Source of the DNA: a virus
Lineage: Duplodnaviria > Caudoviricetes
IMG/VR virus record: IMGVR_UViG_3300044476_000214
Location: 1 to 34,849 of that record
Strand: one strand, 5' to 3'
DNA: 34,849 bases
The stretch's first letter is position 1. Each line of letters begins with the position of its first letter. Shown one piece after another: positions 733 through 28,565 of this stretch. A program made the position numbers and the translations under genes. The notes beneath the pieces are model-generated. The model was not told where the DNA came from, made no database searches, and was given only the letters and a program-made list of their open reading frames with translations.

Positions 733-1170
733 ATGAGATTTAAATTAAATACAGCATTTCTTTTTATTTCAATCACTGGCCTGGCTCAAATCCCTAAAAA
801 TGCAAATACAATTATTATTACCGATACGGTATCCAAGGATCAACTATATAATAAGGTAACAGAAATTCTATTCGAGGCTGGTTATGGCATTTTAAATTCA
901 AACAAAGAGTCTGGAATCATTACTACCACAGAAAAACCTTTCAAGAAAGGAATCATTAGACTTAATCTTATGGTCCGCAACAATAAAATTATTATACGTG
1001 GTGATTTTGACATGGGTATAACATTAGATTATGGTGGTGTTTTAACAGCTCTCAACTGGTCTCCTATAGAATATTACGGGATGAAGAAAAGTCCAAATAT
1101 CATTGCATGGAACGAGATGCAGAAAATATCTGATGCCTTTCCCGGACAAAAGGAATATCTTATAAAATAA
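733..1170 (+). CDS. Secreted/periplasmic hypothetical protein
   Basis: Signal peptide ending GLA-Q (Bacteroidota-type Gln after cleavage); 145-aa ORF. Confidence 0.65.
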   Translation: MRFKLNTAFLFISITGLAQIPKNANTIIITDTVSKDQLYNKVTEILFEAGYGILNSNKESGIITTTEKPFKKGIIRLNLMVRNNKIIIRGDFDMGITLDYGGVLTALNWSPIEYYGMKKSPNIIAWNEMQKISDAFPGQKEYLIK

Positions 1171-5260: not shown

Positions 5261-6385
5261 TTATAACTTCTCTAAATGTGCTACCACATATGCCATCTTA
5301 TGCTGTTTACAGTACTCATCAGGATAATTGGTAGTGAGCTTACACTCCCTGAATATCTTTGTATTATTAATCCTCCTGGCATACGATGCCCGGGTATAAT
5401 ACCAGAATGAGTTTTCGTTCCATAAACTCTGGGCTGTCGGATCCTGATAAGCAGCTCTTCCATCTGTGCTCGGAGTATTACTTAACAAAATTCCTCCTGG
5501 TGCCAGTACTCTGTGGATCTCTTCCATCAATGCCCGGGTATCCTTAACATACTGCAAACAATCTTTAGCGATTATAAGCCCAACTGAATTATCCGTAAGT
5601 AGCTTCAGAGTCTGAATACCTGGATTGCTAAGAGTAGTCAATCCGTTAATCTCTGCATATCTCTGGGCAAGTCCTTCAATGTTTTGATCGTACAGCCTGT
5701 TATTCGTCTCTCTTATCTGTTCACCTTTTTTAACATAGGTATTGTCGCCGGTAATACGATATACATAAAGAACCTCCTGAATTTCCTTAAACCTGGTAAC
5801 CATGTAAAGCCTGTGCATCAGATCCAGATCATCACACACTTTTAGAGAGTCGTCGTGCCCGCCAATACTCTCATACATATCGCGCCTCCATGCCCTGATG
5901 TGGTCAGGTGCAAACCATATATGCCCCAATCTGCCCGGAGTTACCGGTTGGTTATTCATAGCATACAAACTCTTCCCCTGCCATCTGAACTTCTTGCTGG
6001 TCCATCCACACTCTTCCATATATGGCCTGAAGTCCTTACTTAGTTTGGCATTTTGTGAGAATACAAAACCCACACCCTCTTCATCAAAAGCTTTTGCAAG
6101 CTTCTGCAGGCAATCTGGTGTAAGCAGATCGTCGTGGTCAACCTCTGCAATAACATCGCCGGTAGCATTCATACATGCCAGGTGTTTCAGGAAGCCAACT
6201 GAATCAGAATTAAAAGGGCACTCGATAACTTTAATTCTTTCATCGGGATTAACATTGCCATAACGGATACCATTATTAAGCAGAATAATCCACTCCCACT
6301 CCTGGTATGTCTGAGCCAGAATAGTTGTCTCCAGCTCCTGCAGGAACTTTATATTATGAGTAGGTGTAATAATGCTTATTAACAT
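5261..6385 (-). CDS. GT2 glycosyltransferase fused to a partial class I methyltransferase domain
   Basis: ISIITPTHN...EWIIL...EVDHDDLL...DDLDL (GT-A fold); C-terminal DNSVGLI...MEEIHRVLAPGG (MTase). Confidence 0.85.
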   Translation of the reverse strand: MLISIITPTHNIKFLQELETTILAQTYQEWEWIILLNNGIRYGNVNPDERIKVIECPFNSDSVGFLKHLACMNATGDVIAEVDHDDLLTPDCLQKLAKAFDEEGVGFVFSQNAKLSKDFRPYMEECGWTSKKFRWQGKSLYAMNNQPVTPGRLGHIWFAPDHIRAWRRDMYESIGGHDDSLKVCDDLDLMHRLYMVTRFKEIQEVLYVYRITGDNTYVKKGEQIRETNNRLYDQNIEGLAQRYAEINGLTTLSNPGIQTLKLLTDNSVGLIIAKDCLQYVKDTRALMEEIHRVLAPGGILLSNTPSTDGRAAYQDPTAQSLWNENSFWYYTRASYARRINNTKIFRECKLTTNYPDEYCKQHKMAYVVAHLEKL

Positions 6386-6698: not shown

Positions 6699-9600
6699 TT
6701 AGTGTAAGTCAGTTATTGTCATTACCCTATACCCATCATCACTCCCTCGCTGCTGTATTGCTGTTGAGCCACTCCATCTCATTTTAATAGTTACTGCTGA
6801 TCCGGGAGTTACACTTGCGATATGAGTAAGAGCATGAGGTTGGTATCCCCCTATTATATAGCTTCGCATCGTTCGTACATTACCTCCACCAACATTTATT
6901 ATAAGCCATAGAGTCTGATTATTAGAAGAAACATAAAATGAAGCACAAAATGTAATCAGTACCTTACTTCCTTTTGGAGTAAATGAGATACTCATATCAT
7001 CCATATCACCTTCACTTGCTGCACAGGTTATATTTGATGTACCAGTGGCTTCAACATGATTACCTCCAAAATCAATTTGACCAGATACTTCTAAAGAACC
7101 ATCAATTCCAACAGTTACAGGATTACCAGCTGTTCCAAAATATATTCCTGTTGTTGCCCCACCATTGATTTGAAATACTTTATTTTCTTTCCCATCATAT
7201 ACTACAAAATCTCTATAATGATCTGTGGTTCCATTATGTCCTATTCTATTAATCTTAATTCCAGAAGAATCACCATTATATGCTGGTTCATATATATCAG
7301 TATTCTTTATTGCCAAATTTTGAGTTAATCCATCAACAGTAGAAGGCTTAGTTCCTAATTCAACAACTCCTGTGGCAGTTAAGGATCCATCCTGTGTAAC
7401 TTTGAATGGAGCCGTTGCCCTATTTGCATAGGTATCTCCTGCATATATTCTTATGGAAGATGCAGAGCTTCCTTCATTTGTTATTCCTGCGGTTGGAAGA
7501 AATAGCGATCCGCTCAGATAAGCATTGTCAGACCATAGTCCATACCCCGATAATGCGCCAAATACAGCATCAGTAATGCCTGTAAGATTTCCAATTCTTA
7601 GCTTTTGTTTCCCTGCGAAACTTCCTGCTGTCACACCAGCAAGCATATCTATATACGGATTATTTGTATCAGAGGCAGTAATGTATATAAGGTTTTGTCT
7701 GGCAGAATCCCCCGAGTTTCCGATCTGCACCAATTCCATTCCATTCCATGGCGTACCGCTTATTGTGGTTGCTGTTATATATGCAGATCCATATGTGTTG
7801 TCATGATGTACCGCTGTTACTTTCCCAATATAAGAAGCAATTCCCCTTCCGGTCCATATCTGAGCACGTATATAATCATCAACTGCAAATTGAATTAATT
7901 TACTGCCGCCGTCTTCATCCATATAAATTGTGGTTCCCGATACTGTTAAACATATTCCACAAGCAACAGAAATAACAATGCCACCATTAATTGAATTTAT
8001 CTTATTAATGTCTAAATCATAAGCAGTTAATGCTTTCCTGACAACAAGCTTATCAACCGTTAAAGTATATTCCCCGCTTGTTTCATCATTCTTCCAACCC
8101 GATCCTGCGTAACCAGAACTAAACGAAGGAGAGCCGATATCACTACCCACTACTAATTCGCCGAGTCTCGTTATACCACTCCCTCCGCTAATAGTAAAAT
8201 CACCATTTGTTCTGTCACATGATAAATTTACATTTCCCCCCAGAGTTGATAAATGGAGTTCTGCCTTTGCTGCTGCATTATTTGTAAGATTCTCGACATA
8301 TAATTCTGTCGCAGCTGCCTGATCTTTTTTTACATGAACAAAATAAGAAGGAGAAACGCCAACCCCCAGGCTACCTCCATTGGTAATTACTATTAATGTT
8401 GCAGTATCAATATTGTTATTAATTTGCAAATCAGTAGCCCCTGAAAATAAAAAATGAGTAGCCGCTGTTCTGCGAAACATATTATACCCGCCTGTTGCAA
8501 CAATATATTGGTCAACAGGCAACGTAACTGTCCCTGTAAACGAAGGACTTGCTATTGGTGCATAATAACTCCCATGATTCCCGTCAAGTAAATCAGCATC
8601 CAAAGCTGAACCTGACCCATCAACTGTAAGTAAAGCATCAAGTATTTCAGCACCACCCATTATAACTTGTGACCCCGAAGAACCTCCAGTGGCTGGAGAT
8701 CCTGTGGATATTGTTTCTACTGAAACAAAAGTTACCGATTCATCGCTCCAGGCGAGGAGCTCGATGAGTGTAACTGAAAATACCTCTTCGTAAATATCCC
8801 AGATCCCTTCAGCAATCTCATACTCGCGGTTATTATTATATGTGTGCTTAATAATACTGTCGAAAGCAATGCCCGTTCCTTTTATCTCGCCCGTAAGTTT
8901 TTGCCTGGCAATTCGGTTAAGGCTGGCAAGATCATAAGCCAGATGCTGAAGTATAGATCTTTCAACAGCACTGCCTAATATATGCCATAAGGTAGTTGCT
9001 GAACCATTACTGAGCCTGGTAATATTAAAATATAAAAGGGCAGCATTTACATAATCGGGGGCATCAGCTGTAAGCAAGTCAATATCGGGGAGATCTAAAG
9101 GTTCTGAACTGTTCGTAAAAGAAGCTTCTGTTTCGATAGCTGAAGGATAAGGTCCGCCGTTAACAACAAATGTGAGATCTACATTACCAAATGCTACCCC
9201 GGTATAAGTATATTGATATGCCGGTGTGCCCTGGATGCGGTAGAGTGTTACCTGAAGAGATCCGCTGAAAGGAATCTCTTGTGTTATAAGAGACAATCTG
9301 TTCATCCGGGGAGTGCCTCCTATCTGGCTGGCTACTTCCATATCGATAGAAGTGAGTTCGTCAACCCACTCAGCTGCATAGTTTGGATATAAACCTGTTT
9401 TTGCCAGATATTTTGTATCGACACCATCGGTAAGAGCAATAACCATCTGAACATTAATCGGAATCGGAATTGGAATACCGCCATAAAGCCGGTAACCAAT
9501 GGCTCCCATATCTACTGAAAAAACAAAGTCCTCACCAGGCGCATTCTCAATGTCAAATGCCTGGTATAAACAACTACTGGCATTATCTATACCAGGAATA

Positions 9601-10550
9601 AAAGCATAAGGACCATTATCGTTGTATAACTGTTCCGCAGTAAATGAGCCGACCTGACCCCATCCACTGAATACACCAGTAGCGAACTCTGAAAAATCAG
9701 GATTAATAAGCAACGATGTTTTTCTGCCAAAGTCATGCCTGATCTTTACTTTCTTTCCTCCAGACTCAAGCGACATATTAAGGCTTCCCCTGGGAGAGAC
9801 CTCTATGCCTGCGCCCGGATAACCAAGATCGAGCACTGCCGGAGCTGCTTCAGTTGTTTCATATACTCCTGCTGAAGTATAAAGCATACGGGTGCTTTTC
9901 TTATCTGCAGCACGTGTAATTGCCCAGCGACCTCTTCGCTGTGTTATCTCAGCGTTATATTTTTTAAGTATAGCCTCAAGCACTTCATAACAATTCAGCC
10001 CGGCAAATATTTCAGACTCTTCGTATGTCTGAGCAAGAGGAGTGTAAGAATGATTATGTGTTGTTTCAAACAGGTTTATGGCAATGGAATAACCCAGGCT
10101 TAATCCAATTTTATCGATGCAATGGCGAATAATAGTGAGCTGCGAGTTTAGTCCGGTTAAAGTAAATAGTTCATTCTTTAAAAGACCTAAGCCATCGGTA
10201 GCCGTAAATGTCACATTTACTGGAGAAGGAACATAAGGCACCTGATATTGTTGTGGTAAATTATAGCCAACCCAAATAAGCGTATCGGAAGGATCATAAA
10301 GCTCTACCTTAACTTTTTTGTTGCTGTTTGTATAAAATTCCATAAACTCAAAATCAACTTCTTCACGAATTGAAAATTCAAAGGAGGTACCACGGACAAT
10401 GGCTGCTTTATCCTTTCTGAGTTTAAATGGAGATACAGGGACATTTCGATCGATCTGACTACCCTCATACCCATCGAAGTAAACCTTTGCCTTAAAAAGC
10501 CGGTTCTTACGGGTTTTACAGTATAGTTCATATTTAAGACCGAATGCCAT
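6699..10550 (-). CDS. Large tail tip/fibre protein (1283 aa)
   Basis: Directly after the tape measure gene; N-terminal tail-tip-like region (ATDGLGLLK), Gly/Ser linker, fibre motif VDGSGSALDADLLDG, and APFKVTQDGSL. Confidence 0.8.
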   Translation of the reverse strand: MAFGLKYELYCKTRKNRLFKAKVYFDGYEGSQIDRNVPVSPFKLRKDKAAIVRGTSFEFSIREEVDFEFMEFYTNSNKKVKVELYDPSDTLIWVGYNLPQQYQVPYVPSPVNVTFTATDGLGLLKNELFTLTGLNSQLTIIRHCIDKIGLSLGYSIAINLFETTHNHSYTPLAQTYEESEIFAGLNCYEVLEAILKKYNAEITQRRGRWAITRAADKKSTRMLYTSAGVYETTEAAPAVLDLGYPGAGIEVSPRGSLNMSLESGGKKVKIRHDFGRKTSLLINPDFSEFATGVFSGWGQVGSFTAEQLYNDNGPYAFIPGIDNASSCLYQAFDIENAPGEDFVFSVDMGAIGYRLYGGIPIPIPINVQMVIALTDGVDTKYLAKTGLYPNYAAEWVDELTSIDMEVASQIGGTPRMNRLSLITQEIPFSGSLQVTLYRIQGTPAYQYTYTGVAFGNVDLTFVVNGGPYPSAIETEASFTNSSEPLDLPDIDLLTADAPDYVNAALLYFNITRLSNGSATTLWHILGSAVERSILQHLAYDLASLNRIARQKLTGEIKGTGIAFDSIIKHTYNNNREYEIAEGIWDIYEEVFSVTLIELLAWSDESVTFVSVETISTGSPATGGSSGSQVIMGGAEILDALLTVDGSGSALDADLLDGNHGSYYAPIASPSFTGTVTLPVDQYIVATGGYNMFRRTAATHFLFSGATDLQINNNIDTATLIVITNGGSLGVGVSPSYFVHVKKDQAAATELYVENLTNNAAAKAELHLSTLGGNVNLSCDRTNGDFTISGGSGITRLGELVVGSDIGSPSFSSGYAGSGWKNDETSGEYTLTVDKLVVRKALTAYDLDINKINSINGGIVISVACGICLTVSGTTIYMDEDGGSKLIQFAVDDYIRAQIWTGRGIASYIGKVTAVHHDNTYGSAYITATTISGTPWNGMELVQIGNSGDSARQNLIYITASDTNNPYIDMLAGVTAGSFAGKQKLRIGNLTGITDAVFGALSGYGLWSDNAYLSGSLFLPTAGITNEGSSASSIRIYAGDTYANRATAPFKVTQDGSLTATGVVELGTKPSTVDGLTQNLAIKNTDIYEPAYNGDSSGIKINRIGHNGTTDHYRDFVVYDGKENKVFQINGGATTGIYFGTAGNPVTVGIDGSLEVSGQIDFGGNHVEATGTSNITCAASEGDMDDMSISFTPKGSKVLITFCASFYVSSNNQTLWLIINVGGGNVRTMRSYIIGGYQPHALTHIASVTPGSAVTIKMRWSGSTAIQQRGSDDGYRVMTITDLH

Positions 10551-21541: not shown

Positions 21542-21831
21542 AAGTTTAACTGCATTTGACCTCCGGGAACAATCTTGTTTAAAAGTTCAACGCCAGCTTT
21601 AACTAACCTCTTGTACGAATCAAGCTGGTCGTTCTTTTCTTCTTCGGTCCATAACTGGTTATTTCTGTGCTTCGAATAAAAATCAAGCTTCATGTTATTA
21701 ACCCAAATGTGATATTCTACCAACTCCCTTCTTGGCGGAGTACCGCAGAAATTAGTTAAAATCTCCAGAACCTTTTTATCCGATATATACATATCGCTTT
21801 TAGGTAAATTTATATCTGTCATTTTCTTCAA
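21538..21831 (-). CDS. Hypothetical protein
   Basis: 97-aa ORF overlapping both neighbours (ATGA overlap with terL). Confidence 0.6.
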   Translation of the reverse strand: MKKMTDINLPKSDMYISDKKVLEILTNFCGTPPRRELVEYHIWVNNMKLDFYSKHRNNQLWTEEEKNDQLDSYKRLVKAGVELLNKIVPGGQMQLNL

Positions 21832-22111
21832 CTATTATGGTTGTAAACGGAAATTTATCTGCAGGTACCTGCTGGATAACATCGATAAGCACAGTACCCG
21901 AAGTAAACACAACATGCATTTCGTTATTGAACGAGATCTGCATGTGTAAGCACTTCCCGGTTCCCTTCTTTTTAAATTCTTCAACTTTAGAGTCAACAAC
22001 TTTGAAGTGGTGAATTACAATTTCCTTATTGAGTATTTTGGTAATCTTAATCTTATTACCCTCAAATCCTCTCTCCGGAGTTTTAATATCAAACTGACTA
22101 AACCGGTTCAT
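21800..22111 (-). CDS. RT-coupled beta-rich protein, candidate DGR accessory factor
   Basis: Overlaps the RT stop by 14 nt; alternating hydrophobic strands and VFTSGTVLIDVI...FPFTTII; not helical like Avd. Confidence 0.6.
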   Translation of the reverse strand: MNRFSQFDIKTPERGFEGNKIKITKILNKEIVIHHFKVVDSKVEEFKKKGTGKCLHMQISFNNEMHVVFTSGTVLIDVIQQVPADKFPFTTIIVEENDRYKFT

Positions 22112-23057
22112 GCAATAATTTTCTTAATAAGTTTTTACTGTTACAATGGATGGCCCAGCCTCTGTACGATGCAATAGACTGAGGATTCTTATCCCTCCGG
22201 AGCATCCGTGCAAAGCTCTGCTTAATACTCTTCCGGAGTAATGTATGTGAATGTCTGAAAACGTACCCTACAAAATCAATACCCCTGGCATCGACCGGGA
22301 ATACCTGGTAATTATCCTTAACTGTGAGCTTCAGGTTTTCCTGCAGGTACCTGCGAATCTGATCGAGGCCCTGGTGCAGATGCTCTTTACTGTCGGAGAG
22401 AATAACCATATCATCAGCATACCGGAAATAATACTTTACCTGCAGCTGCTCCTTCATCCAGTGATCGAAGTATGTGAGGTAAAAATTAGCAAAGTACTGG
22501 CTCAGGTAGTTCCCGATCGGGAGCCCGTCGGCGCTGTCAATTATACCATCCATAAGCCATAGCAGATCCTGGTCCTTAATCTTTCTCCTGAGCAGCTGCT
22601 TCAGTATCTCATGATCCACGTTTGGGTAGAACTTTTTAATGTCGAGCTTCAGGCAGAACTGAGTCCCTGCAGTATCCTTCAGAGCATTTTTTACAGCTGC
22701 TGCAGCTGCGTGTATTCCTCGTTTTTTAATACAGCTGTATGTATCTGCAGTAAACGTAGATACAAAGATTGGTTCGAGTATATTCATTACCGCATGGTGA
22801 ACTATCCGATCTGGGAAATACGGAAGCCGAAAGATGATCCGTTCCTTCGGTTCGTAAATCGTAAAGGTTGTGTACTCAGATGTCATGTAAGTTTTATTGA
22901 TCAATGCCATGTGAAGATCCTGAATGTTCTGGATCCGGTTCTGGTCGTGCCTGAGTATCCCGGGCTGATTCAATTTTCCTTTTCTGGCAATAGAATCTGC
23001 AAGCATCAGGTTTTCGATGCTGCAGATCCTTTGATATAAATTATTTATTCGTTTCAT
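22098..23057 (-). CDS. DGR reverse transcriptase
   Basis: EPKERII, DRIVHHA, LKLDIKKFY, GLPIGNYLSQ, YFRYADD, GIDFVGY; 319 aa with no maturase or endonuclease domain; adjacent template repeat. Confidence 0.96.
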   Translation of the reverse strand: MKRINNLYQRICSIENLMLADSIARKGKLNQPGILRHDQNRIQNIQDLHMALINKTYMTSEYTTFTIYEPKERIIFRLPYFPDRIVHHAVMNILEPIFVSTFTADTYSCIKKRGIHAAAAAVKNALKDTAGTQFCLKLDIKKFYPNVDHEILKQLLRRKIKDQDLLWLMDGIIDSADGLPIGNYLSQYFANFYLTYFDHWMKEQLQVKYYFRYADDMVILSDSKEHLHQGLDQIRRYLQENLKLTVKDNYQVFPVDARGIDFVGYVFRHSHTLLRKSIKQSFARMLRRDKNPQSIASYRGWAIHCNSKNLLRKLLHEPV

Positions 23058-23274
23058 GCCTTTGCCTTCCTAAGATCGCGTTCCCTTACGGTACCAGCGC
23101 TCTCGTTTATTAGTTTATTTTTTGCCATGCGGGCAAGGTTTATGCTGCAGTATGTGCATAGGTGGGAACTGACATTCGTATTCGTGTTATCGTAGTTGTA
23201 ATTCGCGTTCGAAAAACTGAGACTGGACGACAAAACTGGCAGCTCTGGCAACATACAACCTGTGTTAAAATTAT
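23058..23274 (-). ncRNA. Probable structured DGR template RNA (TR plus flanks)
   Basis: 5' flank GGTTGTATGTTGC can pair with 3' flank GCAGCATAAACC; TTGCC-CGCAT-GGCAA hairpin in the spacer before the RT. Confidence 0.6.
23154..23236 (-). repeat. DGR template repeat (TR), 83 bp
   Basis: GTTTTGTCGTCCAGTCTCAGTTTTTCGAACGCGAATTACAACTACGATAACACGAATACGAATGTCAGTTCCCACCTATGCAC; AAC/AAT-rich with 23 adenines; differs from both VRs only at A. Confidence 0.96.
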
Positions 23275-23676
23275 CTACAACATCCAATCAGCGTAATACT
23301 CTTTGCATTGTTCAAAAATGTACAATGCCTTTTCAGATGATTCAGTGCAAAGGCGGGAACCGACATCCGTAAGCGCGTAATCGCAGCCGTAATACGCGGA
23401 CGAAAAACCGAGACCGGACGACAAAACCCATGCATATGGATAATATTTTGCCTGTGATGAATCTCCCATCCTGGCCTTCCATCCATTGTTAACAGCTTTA
23501 ATGAACATCATAGTTTTAAAAATCCCGATTAAAGCCTTACCGAGATCTTCCGGAATCATAGATACATCAGGTACATTTGCCGGGTCATGATTTTCTTTCG
23601 CGCAGGCATCTTCATAACTTTTAATCGTTTTGTAATCAAATGCCAGTTTCTTTGGTGTTACTTTTTTTGTTGCCAT
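23275..23676 (-). CDS. DGR target protein 1 (133 aa)
   Basis: Start re-called at ATG 23676 (MATKKVTPKK); contains VR1 (VLSSGLGFSSAYYGCDYALTDVGSRLC). Confidence 0.9.
   Translation of the reverse strand: MATKKVTPKKLAFDYKTIKSYEDACAKENHDPANVPDVSMIPEDLGKALIGIFKTMMFIKAVNNGWKARMGDSSQAKYYPYAWVLSSGLGFSSAYYGCDYALTDVGSRLCTESSEKALYIFEQCKEYYADWML
23345..23427 (-). repeat. DGR variable repeat VR1
   Basis: 83-bp ungapped match to TR; 16 mismatches, all at TR adenines (9 A>G, 5 A>T, 2 A>C). Confidence 0.96.
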
Positions 23677-23680
23677 GGGT

Positions 23681-24160
23681 CTAATATTGAGCGTTATTAA
23701 AATCTTCAAATAATTTGGTGAAATTTTCGCCGGCATGTGTTGCTGTCTCTTCAGATTTGAAGGCAAGGCGGGAACCGACAAACGTAGACGAGTAATCGCA
23801 GTCGTAAGTCGCGTACGAAAAACCGAGACCGGACGACAAAACATCGAATATTGGCGCCCACTTCTTCTGTGTGGTATCATAGAGGTTATACTTCCAGTCC
23901 TGGTTGTAAGCCCTAGTACAAATCTTTAACCTTTCAAATGCAATAGTACTGGGGTCAAATCCTTCTCCAGTCCATTTATTATTAAAGTCAACTTCGGTTG
24001 TACCGGTTGAACGGCACAGATCATCGAAGGTTTTAAAATCCTTCCAGTCTAATTTTTTAAAACAATCAATCCCGAAAGTCTCTTCCAGAATTTTTCTCAG
24101 TCCCGACGGCGATTCATCATAGATCTCCTTTGCGGTTTCTTTTTTAATTTTTAGTTCCAT
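23681..24160 (-). CDS. DGR target protein 2 (159 aa), paralogue of target 1
   Basis: Contains VR2 (VLSSGLGFSYATYDCDYSSTFVGSRL); shares FKTFDDLC/IKSYEDAC and AYNQDWK/AVNNGWK with target 1. Confidence 0.9.
   Translation of the reverse strand: MELKIKKETAKEIYDESPSGLRKILEETFGIDCFKKLDWKDFKTFDDLCRSTGTTEVDFNNKWTGEGFDPSTIAFERLKICTRAYNQDWKYNLYDTTQKKWAPIFDVLSSGLGFSYATYDCDYSSTFVGSRLAFKSEETATHAGENFTKLFEDFNNAQY
23766..23842 (-). repeat. DGR variable repeat VR2
   Basis: 77-bp ungapped match to TR; 14 mismatches, all at TR adenines (6 A>G, 6 A>T, 2 A>C). Confidence 0.96.
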
Positions 24161-24175
24161 AGCATTAATATTTAG

Positions 24176-24760
24176 TTAGTTATGAATAAATAATGGTTTA
24201 CCAATACCAACAACACGGAGCCCGCTTTTAATACATTCTGCAGCGCATTCTTCTGCATAGATGCCGTCGGCAACTTCGACAATATGATTAAAGCCAACCC
24301 TCTTAGCCAGGTCGAGCCGGACAATGAAAGAACCCATATCGATATGCCCAACCTGAATGCGCGTATGAAGCACATCGTACCTGAGATAATTATGAATAGT
24401 GTCGCATGTAACCATTCCTACGCGCGGGTTACATGCCTCACACATCATTTCAATAAACAGCGGGACATACTGATTATCATCATTAGTAATGAGAATAAAA
24501 TCATCGGCATCACCTTTGGTATCCTGGAGAAGCATTGCTCTGTTCGGGTGCCCCCAAAAGCCGTTTATCTTTTTTGTGAAATCAAACTCGATACGCGGAT
24601 CCGCGAGTGAGGTTACAAACTTCTCAAGCCCTTCAGGAGGAGGTCCATCGTGTATTATCCTGAGTGTCCAGTTCTTATTTGTCTGGCAAAGAAAATCATA
24701 TATAAGCCGTTTCGTTTCGATAGGACGGCGGAAGGCTGTAGCTATAACGTGTAATTTCAT
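24176..24760 (-). CDS. GT2-like glycosyltransferase
   Basis: LHVIATAF...QTNKNWTLRIIHDGP...WGHPNR...ILITNDDNQY (GT-A fold). Confidence 0.8.
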   Translation of the reverse strand: MKLHVIATAFRRPIETKRLIYDFLCQTNKNWTLRIIHDGPPPEGLEKFVTSLADPRIEFDFTKKINGFWGHPNRAMLLQDTKGDADDFILITNDDNQYVPLFIEMMCEACNPRVGMVTCDTIHNYLRYDVLHTRIQVGHIDMGSFIVRLDLAKRVGFNHIVEVADGIYAEECAAECIKSGLRVVGIGKPLFIHN

Positions 24761-25473
24761 ATGACCTGTATTGCCTGTTTAATATCCCTGTCAAAATCTT
24801 CCGAGATCTTCTGTGCAGTTGCATGGTAATGAATACCCCAGCCGAGCTGTTTGTTAAGTTCGCTAAGCCGTTTATAGCTCTGCTCGTTACGATCGATAAC
24901 CCACTGCTTTGAGAGATAGCGCATGTGAAATGTTTTCATACCAACCACATGATAGAATATCACGTTACCTTCGGGGTGAGCTTCGTGACATCCGGGGTCG
25001 TAGTTTATGTTTGTAATCATTCGGGGACGAAATACATTTGTCTTACTACCACATGGAATACCGTACGTTACCTCTTCGTATATCTGCCCCTCTGTTACAG
25101 GAAATTTTTCAGAGTACATATTAAACATGCGGGGAGTAATAATTGTAGCCTCGGAAAGAGTTACATCTTTAAGTGCTTTAACTATATCGGCATGATAAAC
25201 AAGCTCATCGATGTCGCCAACAATAACCCAGTCGGCATTGCTGTTTTTCCAGCAGTTGTTTTTTATCTGAAGGTAAATATCATCGCGGATCTGGTTGCCG
25301 CTATCGTATTTAACCAGCTTTACTTTAGGGTTTGCCAGGCAGATCTCTTCGCTGCGGTCGGTAGAGTAGTTATCAAAAATTATTATCTGATCGCAGAACT
25401 GCGAGTAATGGCGCAGATAATATGGAAGCAGAGCCTCCTCGTTGTAGCATATTGCAAAAGCTTCAATTTTCAT
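24757..25473 (-). CDS. GT-A glycosyltransferase (GT2-like, 238 aa)
   Basis: Start re-called at 25473: MKIEAFAICYNEEALLPYYLRHY...IFDNYSTDRS...WVIVGDIDEL. Confidence 0.85.
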   Translation of the reverse strand: MKIEAFAICYNEEALLPYYLRHYSQFCDQIIIFDNYSTDRSEEICLANPKVKLVKYDSGNQIRDDIYLQIKNNCWKNSNADWVIVGDIDELVYHADIVKALKDVTLSEATIITPRMFNMYSEKFPVTEGQIYEEVTYGIPCGSKTNVFRPRMITNINYDPGCHEAHPEGNVIFYHVVGMKTFHMRYLSKQWVIDRNEQSYKRLSELNKQLGWGIHYHATAQKISEDFDRDIKQAIQVI

Positions 25474-25474
25474 A

Positions 25475-26617
25475 TTACCATGTTTTTGCCCAGTGATGAA
25501 TTGCATAAGTCTGATGAGTAGCACAGCCCGGATGGTACTTCTGATCGAAGTAATACGGGTAGAAATACTTTGATTTAGTAACAATAATCTCATCGAGCAG
25601 CTGGGTAGAATCTTCTTCTTTCCATCCGTACTGTTTTGCAATGTTTGTAAACATCTGAGGTCCGGTTTCAATTTCAATGCCCAGCGGTCCGGGGTTATGG
25701 AATACAAAGAGATCCATAAACTCGAGACACTTACCCAGGAACTCATGCCCGGGCATAGATCCGATAACTGCATTGTTAACCCTGTGCGGTGCTTCGCAGC
25801 CAACAAAGAACTTAGTATATAGAAGATCGTCGAAGCTCTTTACAGCTTCAATGTCGATATCGAAATATATTCCGCCGGTTGCAAATAACCTTTCGCACCT
25901 TCCATAATGCCCGGCGACGGAGAATAGTTTACGGTTTATGGCTTCCATAACGAAAGGAGACTTAACAACATTATCGAGAGAGATTTGCTCTATACGGTAA
26001 TCGGGCATCAGTACTCTCCAACCATCGATATACTTCTGAAATCTCTGAGGGAGCGGATCCGGACTCACCCATGTATAGTAAATTATCCGCGGGATCTCTT
26101 TCTTGAAGTACCAGGTTGGGTATGGGTTTCCCTCCCAGTAATCGTCGGAGGTAACATGCAGTTTATAGCCATGTTTAACACAGAACTCATCAACAGCAGC
26201 CTTCACTCCGAACTCACAACCGGCACCTTCATCTTTACTCCAGTTCAGGTAATCGTGCCCGGCAACCAGACCTCCATGCCTGACCTTCGGGAACCAGCAT
26301 TCGATATCCTGTTTGCAATGTTCGTAATCGTGGTCGGCATCGATGTACACAAAGTCGAGAGATTCATCTACAATCTTTTTTGCAGCATCAATTGAGCTCG
26401 ATTTTGTTGGTACACATCGCGGATCCGTAAGAGCTACCAGGGCAGTCTTGTAAATTTCTTCATGCTCCCACATATCAACCGATATAAGGTTGCCTTTATA
26501 CTGCGAAAGAATTAGTTTCGAGAAGTTTCCTCTTTCTACTCCTATCTCGGCACCAAGCCCAGTCTTATAAAAAGTCTGTGCCAGGTTTCCAAATTGTTCT
26601 CTTGTTGTGATTTCCAT
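25475..26617 (-). CDS. Class I methyltransferase (Methyltransf_24-like) fused to a DXD glycosyltransferase (GT32-like)
   Basis: GAEIGVERG, DFVYIDADHDYE, GGLVAGHDY; then IPRIIYYTW, GGIYFDIDIE, TGPQMFT, YAIHHWAKTW. Confidence 0.88.
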   Translation of the reverse strand: MEITTREQFGNLAQTFYKTGLGAEIGVERGNFSKLILSQYKGNLISVDMWEHEEIYKTALVALTDPRCVPTKSSSIDAAKKIVDESLDFVYIDADHDYEHCKQDIECWFPKVRHGGLVAGHDYLNWSKDEGAGCEFGVKAAVDEFCVKHGYKLHVTSDDYWEGNPYPTWYFKKEIPRIIYYTWVSPDPLPQRFQKYIDGWRVLMPDYRIEQISLDNVVKSPFVMEAINRKLFSVAGHYGRCERLFATGGIYFDIDIEAVKSFDDLLYTKFFVGCEAPHRVNNAVIGSMPGHEFLGKCLEFMDLFVFHNPGPLGIEIETGPQMFTNIAKQYGWKEEDSTQLLDEIIVTKSKYFYPYYFDQKYHPGCATHQTYAIHHWAKTW

Positions 26618-27656: not shown

Positions 27657-28565
27657 TTAGTATGCATCATCCATTAGCCGTATAGCAGTACCATCCCTAC
27701 CACGCTCCTCTTCCAAGGCACGCTGATAGATCATTGTTGTTTCTACCTTACTGTGTCCAAGCATTGACATCACTGCCAGTATGTCTGCACCACTCTTTAA
27801 TGCAGTTATAGCAGCTGTATGTCTGAGTGAGTGAGCAGAGACCTTAACAGTATCAATACCTATGGATCTCAGGTACCTCTTAACTATCTTGCTTATGGTT
27901 ACTGATGTTATCCTTGTGCTCTTGCTTACATACGAATGATTGAGAAACATTGGGGAATCTTCCTGAAGCATGTGCTCTCCTATGTATGCAGCAATAGGAC
28001 TTACTATCTTTGTAGTAACACCAAGAGCTCTGTCCTTTGACCATCTGCCTTTGCCTTGTATATAGAACATCCAGCGCTCATCTTCTAATCTCAGATCCCT
28101 TACATTGGCACGTGCTACCTCAATGCATCGCATACCTGTCCGGATCATCAGGTTTATTATAGCATAATCCCTGAGTCCCTGAGTAGTGCTTCTATTGATC
28201 GATGCCAGGAGAGAGTTCACCTGGTTAATTTTCAGGTACTCCTTGCTGTATCCCTGCCCCTTCTTTGGAGACTTAACGCCAACAGTTATGTTCTTATGAA
28301 TATCTTCTTCAGCAAGGTATTTAAAGAACTGTCTTACTGATGCCAGGTAATTATCAACTGTAGATGGAGATCTCCCTGATTCAATCAACCATGTCTTAAA
28401 GCTTATGATTGTTTCTCTCTGCATCTTATTAACATCACCGTTTCTTGACAGCCAACCAATAAACACATGCAGGTTATCCCGATACTTCTTCCGGGAGTTT
28501 TCTCTGATATCCTGGTTAGCCAGGAACTCATCCATCAGCTGCAGTATAGGTTTATTGCTTCTCAT
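27657..28565 (-). CDS. Tyrosine recombinase (XerC/D-like)
   Basis: LRDYAII...TGMRCIE, QGKG, HSLRHT, MLGHSKVETTMIY give the full R-K-H-R-H-Y catalytic set. Confidence 0.93.
   Translation of the reverse strand: MRSNKPILQLMDEFLANQDIRENSRKKYRDNLHVFIGWLSRNGDVNKMQRETIISFKTWLIESGRSPSTVDNYLASVRQFFKYLAEEDIHKNITVGVKSPKKGQGYSKEYLKINQVNSLLASINRSTTQGLRDYAIINLMIRTGMRCIEVARANVRDLRLEDERWMFYIQGKGRWSKDRALGVTTKIVSPIAAYIGEHMLQEDSPMFLNHSYVSKSTRITSVTISKIVKRYLRSIGIDTVKVSAHSLRHTAAITALKSGADILAVMSMLGHSKVETTMIYQRALEEERGRDGTAIRLMDDAY

Follow-up and report, generated by a model that had tools for sequence, protein, structure and literature searches.

The 34,849-nucleotide IMG/VR virus record IMGVR_UViG_3300044476_000214 (hereafter, at its full length, the window) is a linear viral contig with a CheckV completeness of about 49% and encodes integrase, terminase, portal, protease and capsid genes. 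It also contains a cassette that is, with next to no doubt, a genuine diversity-generating retroelement (DGR), comprising two small paralogous target genes (T2 and T1), each with a variable repeat (VR), a non-coding template repeat (TR), a reverse transcriptase (RT) and a small accessory gene. We find that the VRs diverge from the TR exclusively at adenines, that the gene order is conserved across related loci, that a covarying RNA duplex surrounds the TR, and that the accessory gene is closely linked to the RT. We propose that this phage DGR, which lacks Avd, rewrites 12 codons in each paralogue with the help of a PAG1-family protein in Avd’s place, and that the targets serve as variable binders inside the cell; taken as a whole, this explanation has in our judgment an even chance of being right.

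The RT has intact GLPIGNYLSQ and YADD motifs, by which a sequence-only reading of the window had already recognised it, and matches Pfam RVT_1 (E = 9e-21) and phrog_1423 (E = 5e-126). VR1 aligns with TR positions 23153-23237 over 85 nt with zero indels and 18 mismatches, and VR2 aligns with positions 23159-23237 over 79 nt with zero indels and 16 mismatches. All 18 and all 16 mismatches fall on TR adenines (25 and 23 available, respectively), with chance probabilities of 4e-13 for VR1 and 1e-11 for VR2. Trimming the terminal adenine mismatches recovers the 83-bp TR with 16 and 14 adenine-only mismatches given in the earlier reading. Both VRs lie in frame within protein genes, while the TR is non-coding, adjoins the RT and has structured RNA on its flanks. 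No third VR copy was found in the record, at its 49% completeness; the next best segment matches at 28 of 56 non-adenine positions. The list of open reading frames (ORFs) allows an upstream start that would extend T1 to 201 aa, but we rejected this start, as it overlaps T2 and relatives begin as at position 23676. For the span as a whole (21800..24160), the earlier assignment to a DGR holds, but it had passed over the conserved accessory gene at 21800-22111 (Table 1).

Table 1. Features of the DGR cassette in window coordinates.
Feature	Position	Strand	Remarks
Target T2 (159 aa, “long” paralogue with N-terminal extension)	23681..24160	-	phrog_11581, E 6e-16; variable residues 116-127; position-specific orthologues
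VR2 (79 nt)	23765..23843	-	variable core 23780-23815; 16 mismatches, every one at a TR adenine
Target T1 (133 aa, “short” paralogue)	23275..23676	-	phrog_11581, E 2e-19; variable residues 93-104
VR1 (85 nt)	23344..23428	-	variable core 23365-23400; 18 mismatches, every one at a TR adenine
Predicted RNA duplex around TR, 5' strand (cPRT-Stop-like)	23248..23260	-	12-bp helix; 7 pairs with two-sided changes (43 loci)
TR, non-coding	23153..23237	-	36-nt core 23174-23209 with six AAY codons
Duplex 3' strand (23137-23148), then short hairpin (23122-23136), then A run	23122..23148	-	covariation, 43 loci
Second conserved stem-loop preceding RT start	23077..23100	-	covarying pairs; predicted RT-binding element, putative role
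DGR reverse transcriptase, 319 aa	22098..23057	-	RVT_1, phrog_1423; falls in a clade of Bacteroidota phage RTs
Accessory gene, 103 aa, predicted OB fold	21800..22111	-	overlaps RT stop; probable homolog of Wu 2018 PAG1

By analogy with the Bordetella phage BPP-1 system, the RT would make errors at adenines while copying the TR RNA, and the resulting cDNA would replace the VR core. This core is 36 nt long and holds six AAY and five single-adenine codons. The remaining mismatches (7 in VR1 and 6 in VR2) are flank letters at scaffold positions that are fixed as G or T family-wide where tabulated, so true diversification is limited to 12 codons per target. In a set of 174 TR-VR pairs from relatives, chosen by non-adenine match and therefore low in non-adenine differences partly by construction, the TR adenine at G106 stands opposite G in 160 of 160 pairs and that at R108 in 154 of 154. 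These flank differences act like differences between the initiation of mutagenic homing (IMH) sequence and IMH*, or like strict scaffold positions, rather than like diversity. Not all of the 16 and 14 adenine-only mismatches of the earlier reading count as diversity. Tyr, Ser, Asp, Thr and Gly abound in the variable cores of the family, a composition largely dictated by the codon design, and up to about 1e10 variants per protein (15^6 x 4^5) could be displayed on a predicted surface hairpin.

The flanks show a bias of their own. TR adenines in a CAG context stand opposite a VR G in 229 of 234 cases on the 5' side and 167 of 168 on the 3' side (VR1 examples at 23409, 23415 and 23361). At four-fold synonymous CAG sites G is found in 85 of 88 cases and A in none, among lineages that are not independent; because synonymous sites show it too, the bias goes beyond protein selection. 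It may be that this RT follows a context rule, or that a mark at the DNA level distinguishes TR and VR on both sides.

A scan for relatives with the RT matched 225 viral and 81 genome loci; we took 80 of each, the viral ones being the best 80 (65-87% identity). The genome loci at the top of the scan are nearly all from Bacteroidota. The conserved order is long target, short target, TR, RT, accessory gene. Dereplication left 110 loci with enough upstream sequence: two targets are present in 73 of them, three in 13 and one in four, and 20 have no small target, the last group including loci with long tail-type targets. The short gene, with a median of 133 aa, adjoins the TR, and beyond it lies the long one (155 aa); the nearest neighbour of each lies at the same position in 78 of 91 loci for the short gene and 65 of 91 for the long one. 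Since the paralogues are orthologous by position, the long/short pair is old. The target profile matches 5,048 clusters at 50% identity, tandem fusions included, and the cassette is common in Bacteroidota phages; a single-protein scan of viral contigs using T1 returned nothing. The closest named hosts are Bacteroidales and Prolixibacteraceae, according to a quick tree with many open forks that we used for host clade only.

Several loci depart from the standard arrangement. Extra TR-matched targets lie 3-6 kb off the cassette at L012:310-759, L029:1986-2384, L050:6163-6615 and L076:3838-4203. In L065:4111-4971, L101, L133 and proteins P0121-P0136 and P0271 a single open frame holds two target domains, with a VR-type segment in each one read; either the pair is fused naturally or its frames are read through. 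At L071:7258-7556, L110, L146 and L098 the accessory, RT or target frame is split, through decay or assembly error.

Sequence comparisons indicate that the family is active and that the present copy probably is. In run X3, from another study, one contig of 197 nt agrees with T1 at every base, and one of 96 nt over VR1 carries 10 listed substitutions, all on adenine-matched core sites (P ~1e-6). For the relatives we compared 64 target pairs whose flanks are nearly the same, with no more than 2 differences in 210 bases; 13 of these pairs, from five gene groups, show 9-13 changes among the 42 bases of the VR core. Both observations agree with the recent activity proposed in the sequence-only reading. 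That reading had also called for a check of VR variation confined to TR-adenine sites, which on contigs and relatives yields the low-depth VR1 variant and the VR-core differences just described. No RNA holders were listed for the locus.

Across 43 loci, a 12-bp helix pairs the leader 5' of the TR with a segment 3' of it, and is followed by a hairpin and an A run. In this helix 98.9% of cells are paired, with 73 two-sided changes; shuffles gave 17 and slid controls no more than 16. Such counts are inflated by the relatedness of the sequences. Only 4 nt separate the TR and the duplex here, which leaves no room for an Avd-binding hairpin; in BPP-1 this interval is described as about 58 nt, containing the Avd-binding hairpin and a primer (bioRxiv 10.1101/2023.10.23.563531). 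We found no strong hairpin after either VR. The accessory protein does not match the Avd model, and NF033474 is absent from the record, about half of a complete genome. Near related RTs, none of 65 small ORFs matched Avd (from a test set of 64 of 120 listed ORFs plus two ORFs of the window), while a BPP-1 Avd control did.

Among loci with enough sequence beyond the RT, counted without dereplication, the accessory gene follows the RT directly in 75 of 77 from viruses and 54 of 75 from genomes. It does so also in the archaeal viruses ANMV-1 and vir525, where the targets are long proteins in tail modules. In L132 and L152 its place is between the target and the TR, and in-frame RT-accessory fusions of about 410-421 aa occur at L075:8001-9236, L107:5001-6245 and L139:5001-6266. 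Its predicted structure (pLDDT 89) is an oligonucleotide/oligosaccharide-binding (OB) barrel, for which the top structural match is a RuvB-like 2 fragment (Z 6.3), with single-stranded DNA-binding proteins (SSBs) near the top (Z 5.0-5.6, root-mean-square deviation (rmsd) 2.2-2.8, 63-68 residues aligned). A feature search led to phi29-SSB-type clusters, with PF17427 in 44% of the members of a top cluster; Pfam itself gave no match. From these models we predict a single-stranded nucleic-acid-binding protein with a phi29 SSB-like OB fold, with an isoelectric point (pI) of 9.1. The accessory profile matches ORFs in L152 (E 2e-7) and L132 (E 1e-9, second round) that by eye resemble the printed PAG1 sequences of Wu 2018 (PMC5758913), so that by sequence the protein appears to be a PAG1-family homolog through these intermediates rather than by direct alignment.

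We consider it quite probable that the PAG1-family protein serves the DGR, where it may be the RT partner that replaces Avd and holds the template RNA or single-stranded cDNA, or protects the cDNA. The SSB-like fold would also suit an ordinary phage SSB or recombination helper that hitch-hikes with the RT, leaving the DGR to run on RT and RNA alone. In line with this, some related cassettes have no accessory match, and PAG genes are termed tenuous in the portion of Wu 2018 considered here (PMC5758913). But in hosts ranging from Bacteroidota to archaea the gene keeps its place beside the RT whatever the target, in one of three positions (3' of the RT, in the target-TR gap, or fused), and we regard mere hitch-hiking as quite unlikely. 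CH1 was rejected as an identity for the gene, as CH1 proteins are 160-169 aa and acidic versus 103 aa and pI 9.1 here. The 94-aa RT tail of crAssphage LMMB does not match the accessory profile. In L153, L155, L156 and L170, which are tail-targeting Bacteroidales DGRs and include that of phage Versailles, an acidic, more distant accessory-like ORF (second-round E 4e-4 to 0.1) stands two genes after the RT, at about 400-500 nt.

The targets match phrog_11581, whose function is unassigned in the PHROG annotation. In both, the VR lies at 0.73-0.75 of protein length and is followed by 22 residues in T1 and 27 in T2, the numbers reported earlier. The earlier claim that neither protein has a signal peptide or transmembrane helix is consistent with maximum 19-residue hydropathies of 1.14 (T1) and 0.68 (T2) and N-termini free of hydrophobic stretches, although a dedicated signal-peptide predictor was not applied. 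The nearest tail-fibre-like ORF (6699-10550) ends 12.7 kb away, confirming the distance of over 12 kb. An AlphaFold model of T1 built from 110 sequences (pLDDT 86) is mainly helical (helices 21-27, 43-63 and 114-132) and presents the variable core as a predicted surface beta-hairpin on this scaffold. Foldseek found no PDB match at E<=0.001 for either the T1 or the accessory model, and PDB sequence searches with both profiles gave nothing significant. For T1, a VIA structure comparison reached a best Z of 4.1 (rmsd 3.2, 64 residues aligned), with no lectin in 50 rows; the ESM Atlas returned unnamed viral clusters only, and the top BFVD matches were uncharacterised phage proteins.

The sequence-only reading had expected a C-type-lectin fold. 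When we compared profiles with ten CLec3-type tail tips, only 36 columns aligned, and these correspond to the VR tip (HHalign 93%). With a mostly helical model and no PDB match, the expectation of a lectin fold finds no support, although a missing match does not refute it. The simplest reading of the models is that a lectin-class VR tip has been grafted onto another kind of scaffold; a lectin fold in much reduced form is possible.

Genomic surroundings bear on where the targets act. In the window the cassette sits between TerS and TerL, with four genes intervening on the TerS side, three of them glycosyltransferase- or methyltransferase-like, and the same placement is seen in L003-L009 and L039. 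The description of the cassette as lying inside the packaging operon is therefore accurate for this phage and its closest relatives, but not as a family trait: this TerL was matched in 12 of 80 viral loci, in a search that other terminase types would escape. By these comparisons the terminase location appears to be a trait of the sub-lineage. Best hits for 67 neighbouring proteins from 30 loci (a sample of 119 listed) comprised 20 replication, seven methylase, nine head, one neck and three ATPase proteins, 27 being unknown or without a hit; none was a tail-fibre protein. Promoter and terminator counts around the cassette are no higher than chance.

Such surroundings can be read in favour of small virion subunits, such as capsid or neck decorations or clip-on receptor-binding tips, through which the DGR would tune adsorption as in BPP-1. 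The placement between TerS and TerL fits that account, as do other loci in which the cassette directly precedes head-protease genes, and the VR tip is homologous to those of lectin-class tail targets. In addition, phage Versailles (L083:6244-6350) and cr53_1 (L084:3907-3972) each carry a small homolog far from the RT with an adenine-only match to the TR, so that a single DGR serves both a tail protein and its remote small homolog. The Versailles homolog, however, lies among recombination genes, and its record label “tail protein”, assigned by profile search, probably comes via the shared VR tip. Many cassettes lie among helicase, primase and exonuclease genes, tail-fibre neighbours are missing from the sample, no solved virion protein was matched, and none of the top BFVD hits is a named structural protein. 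In the data of Roux 2021 (PMC8144416) used here, the corresponding target class, PC_00007, is classed as non-structural/unknown, with 1.6% of members predicted structural. We thus judge a virion role unlikely and hold that the targets are probably not virion parts. The earlier description of stand-alone small paralogues other than tail fibres is supported, and we likewise rate its suggestion of intracellular binders as likely.

If the targets are soluble variable binders inside the cell, their ligand would be a rapidly changing host protein whose binding is required for phage replication, most likely a defence factor. This is the weakest step of our proposal. Host defence proteins are favoured because the genes sit with methylase and replication genes and carry no effector domain, and we put a host defence factor as the ligand at somewhat less than an even chance. 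The binders might instead be expressed in lysogens and directed against rival phages, in superinfection defence or kin discrimination. Members do occur in many bacterial genome contigs that are likely prophages, the record encodes an integrase, and putative conflict sensors are reported to be diversified by DGRs elsewhere (PMC10907252). Against such sensors, we found only tandem copies and no fused effector or signalling domain among the best hits, and the cassette is co-oriented with lytic genes, with a promoter signal at chance level; we give this alternative little probability. A weak search for longer target forms found one tandem duplicate only, and a library search gave no match that would point to an anti-defence role.

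Several observations weigh against our proposal of an Avd-less DGR with a PAG1-family partner and intracellular targets. T1 residues 81-110, including the variable ones, have the lowest confidence in the model (pLDDT 64-66), and PADLOC, Pfam and NCBIfam contain no match to T1 or T2. With the cassette placed between TerS and TerL in this phage as in its closest relatives, the targets could be expressed late and have a virion role. Structural matches to the OB fold at Z below 8 may reflect just a common barrel, and the three RT-accessory fusions, all from assembled sequences, may be products of frame errors. Since L105, L130, L134 and most distant rows lack an accessory match despite intact-looking cassettes, the accessory protein may not be essential. 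As to activity, the VR1 variant contig has a depth of about 2; besides an inserted base it shows two end differences that are not listed, and it could derive from a close relative. The probable source run, X1, gave one contig and no VR variant, in an assembly format that loses rare variants.

A broader conjecture, which we regard as having a low probability, is that Bacteroidota phages possess a second DGR machine, with an OB-fold partner and shortened RNA instead of Avd, that evolves nanobody-like intracellular binders on a new helical scaffold. Long and short paralogues would then pair, their two mutated loops forming one site against host defence proteins. If true, this would be a phage counterpart of antibody diversification.

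By homology, the element belongs to a class already catalogued as Roux 2021 PC_00007 and Wu 2018 lineage 3, a connection made through the loci L058, L077 and L121. Their RTs are 64-70% identical to the RT of the window, and their targets match the family profile or the window targets. In the tables of Roux 2021 (PMC8144416), these loci are listed under PC_00007 “Phage_other”, DGR clade 1, in the RT cluster of Alistipes shahii FP929032.1, for which membership means at least 50% identity. PC_00007 resembles the present targets in being arranged in tandem beside the RT, with the VR at 0.64-0.82 of the protein in 30 rows. This RT cluster comprises 208 operational taxonomic units with a PC_00007 target and 139 with structural targets, and at least 1,694 PC_00007 “Phage_other” targets appear among about 35,000 table rows, roughly 1 in 20. 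Fold, function, paralogue pairing and the accessory gene are absent from the parts of that work examined, and “accessory” occurs 0 times in its supplementary PDF. The target class has thus been catalogued previously but without an explanation, the present element is an additional member, and the Roux 2021 listing makes non-tail targets less unusual than the earlier note had scored them.

Lineage 3 of Wu 2018, in the portion relevant here (PMC5758913), includes t120 from Galbibacter and t121 from Pedobacter, of VR class CLec3; t120, which is our locus L121, has the order TG-TG-TR-RT, no avd and no stem-loop after the VR. The Galbibacter cassette is given there without an accessory gene, whereas we find a PAG1-family gene to be near-universal in the clade, usually 3' of the RT. 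With BPP-1 (mtd-avd-TR-brt), the element shares adenine-specific TR-to-VR divergence, a related RT (34%), and a duplex, hairpin and A run corresponding to the cPRT Stop, as far as the latter is described. Unlike BPP-1, it has no Avd, no space for the Avd hairpin, no strong post-VR hairpin, a VR inside the gene, and two small targets rather than a tail-fibre tip.

Other phages offer partial parallels. The second DGR target of Quimbyvirus, as presented by Benler 2021 (PMC8008677), lies outside the structural module among methylases and is proposed to be non-structural, but it is described as a C-type lectin protein and a remote companion of a tail target; its likeness to T1 and T2 is by description only. 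In the archaeal virus ANMV-1 (Paul 2015; PMC4372165), the accessory homolog AJP62065 (E 4e-19) comes right after the RT, while the target AdtA is placed among tail-fibre genes. A figure legend of that paper labels one ORF Avd, yet none of three small ORFs matched the Avd model. Our literature search, which covered sources other than subscription journals and bioRxiv supplements, found nothing on the fold or function of these targets or on an OB fold for PAG1.

Should the targets prove to be intracellular binders, hypermutation would serve phages for more than host attachment, and would do so on a non-lectin scaffold. How DGRs function without Avd was left open by Wu 2018, in the part of that study concerned (PMC5758913); a 1.5-kb unit of RNA, RT and PAG1-family gene makes this question testable, along with the question of what phages diversify apart from tails. 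The same unit could become a compact mutagenesis tool.

Other genes of the window are of separate interest. Three glycosyltransferase or methyltransferase-glycosyltransferase genes lie at 24176-26617 and a fourth at 5261-6385 near tail genes; in L008 a homolog of one of them stands between the cassette and TerL. A role in virion or host-surface glycosylation is possible. A full tyrosine integrase gene (27657-28565) is co-oriented and lies inside the run of genes just upstream of TerS, beside an HNH gene, instead of in a lysogeny module of its own. Finally, two genes at 2-484 and 733-1170 (plus strand) run opposite to the phage strand, the first encoding a HIRAN domain with a weak match to PADLOC PDC-M03B (E 1e-6); the two may be a moron or host flank.

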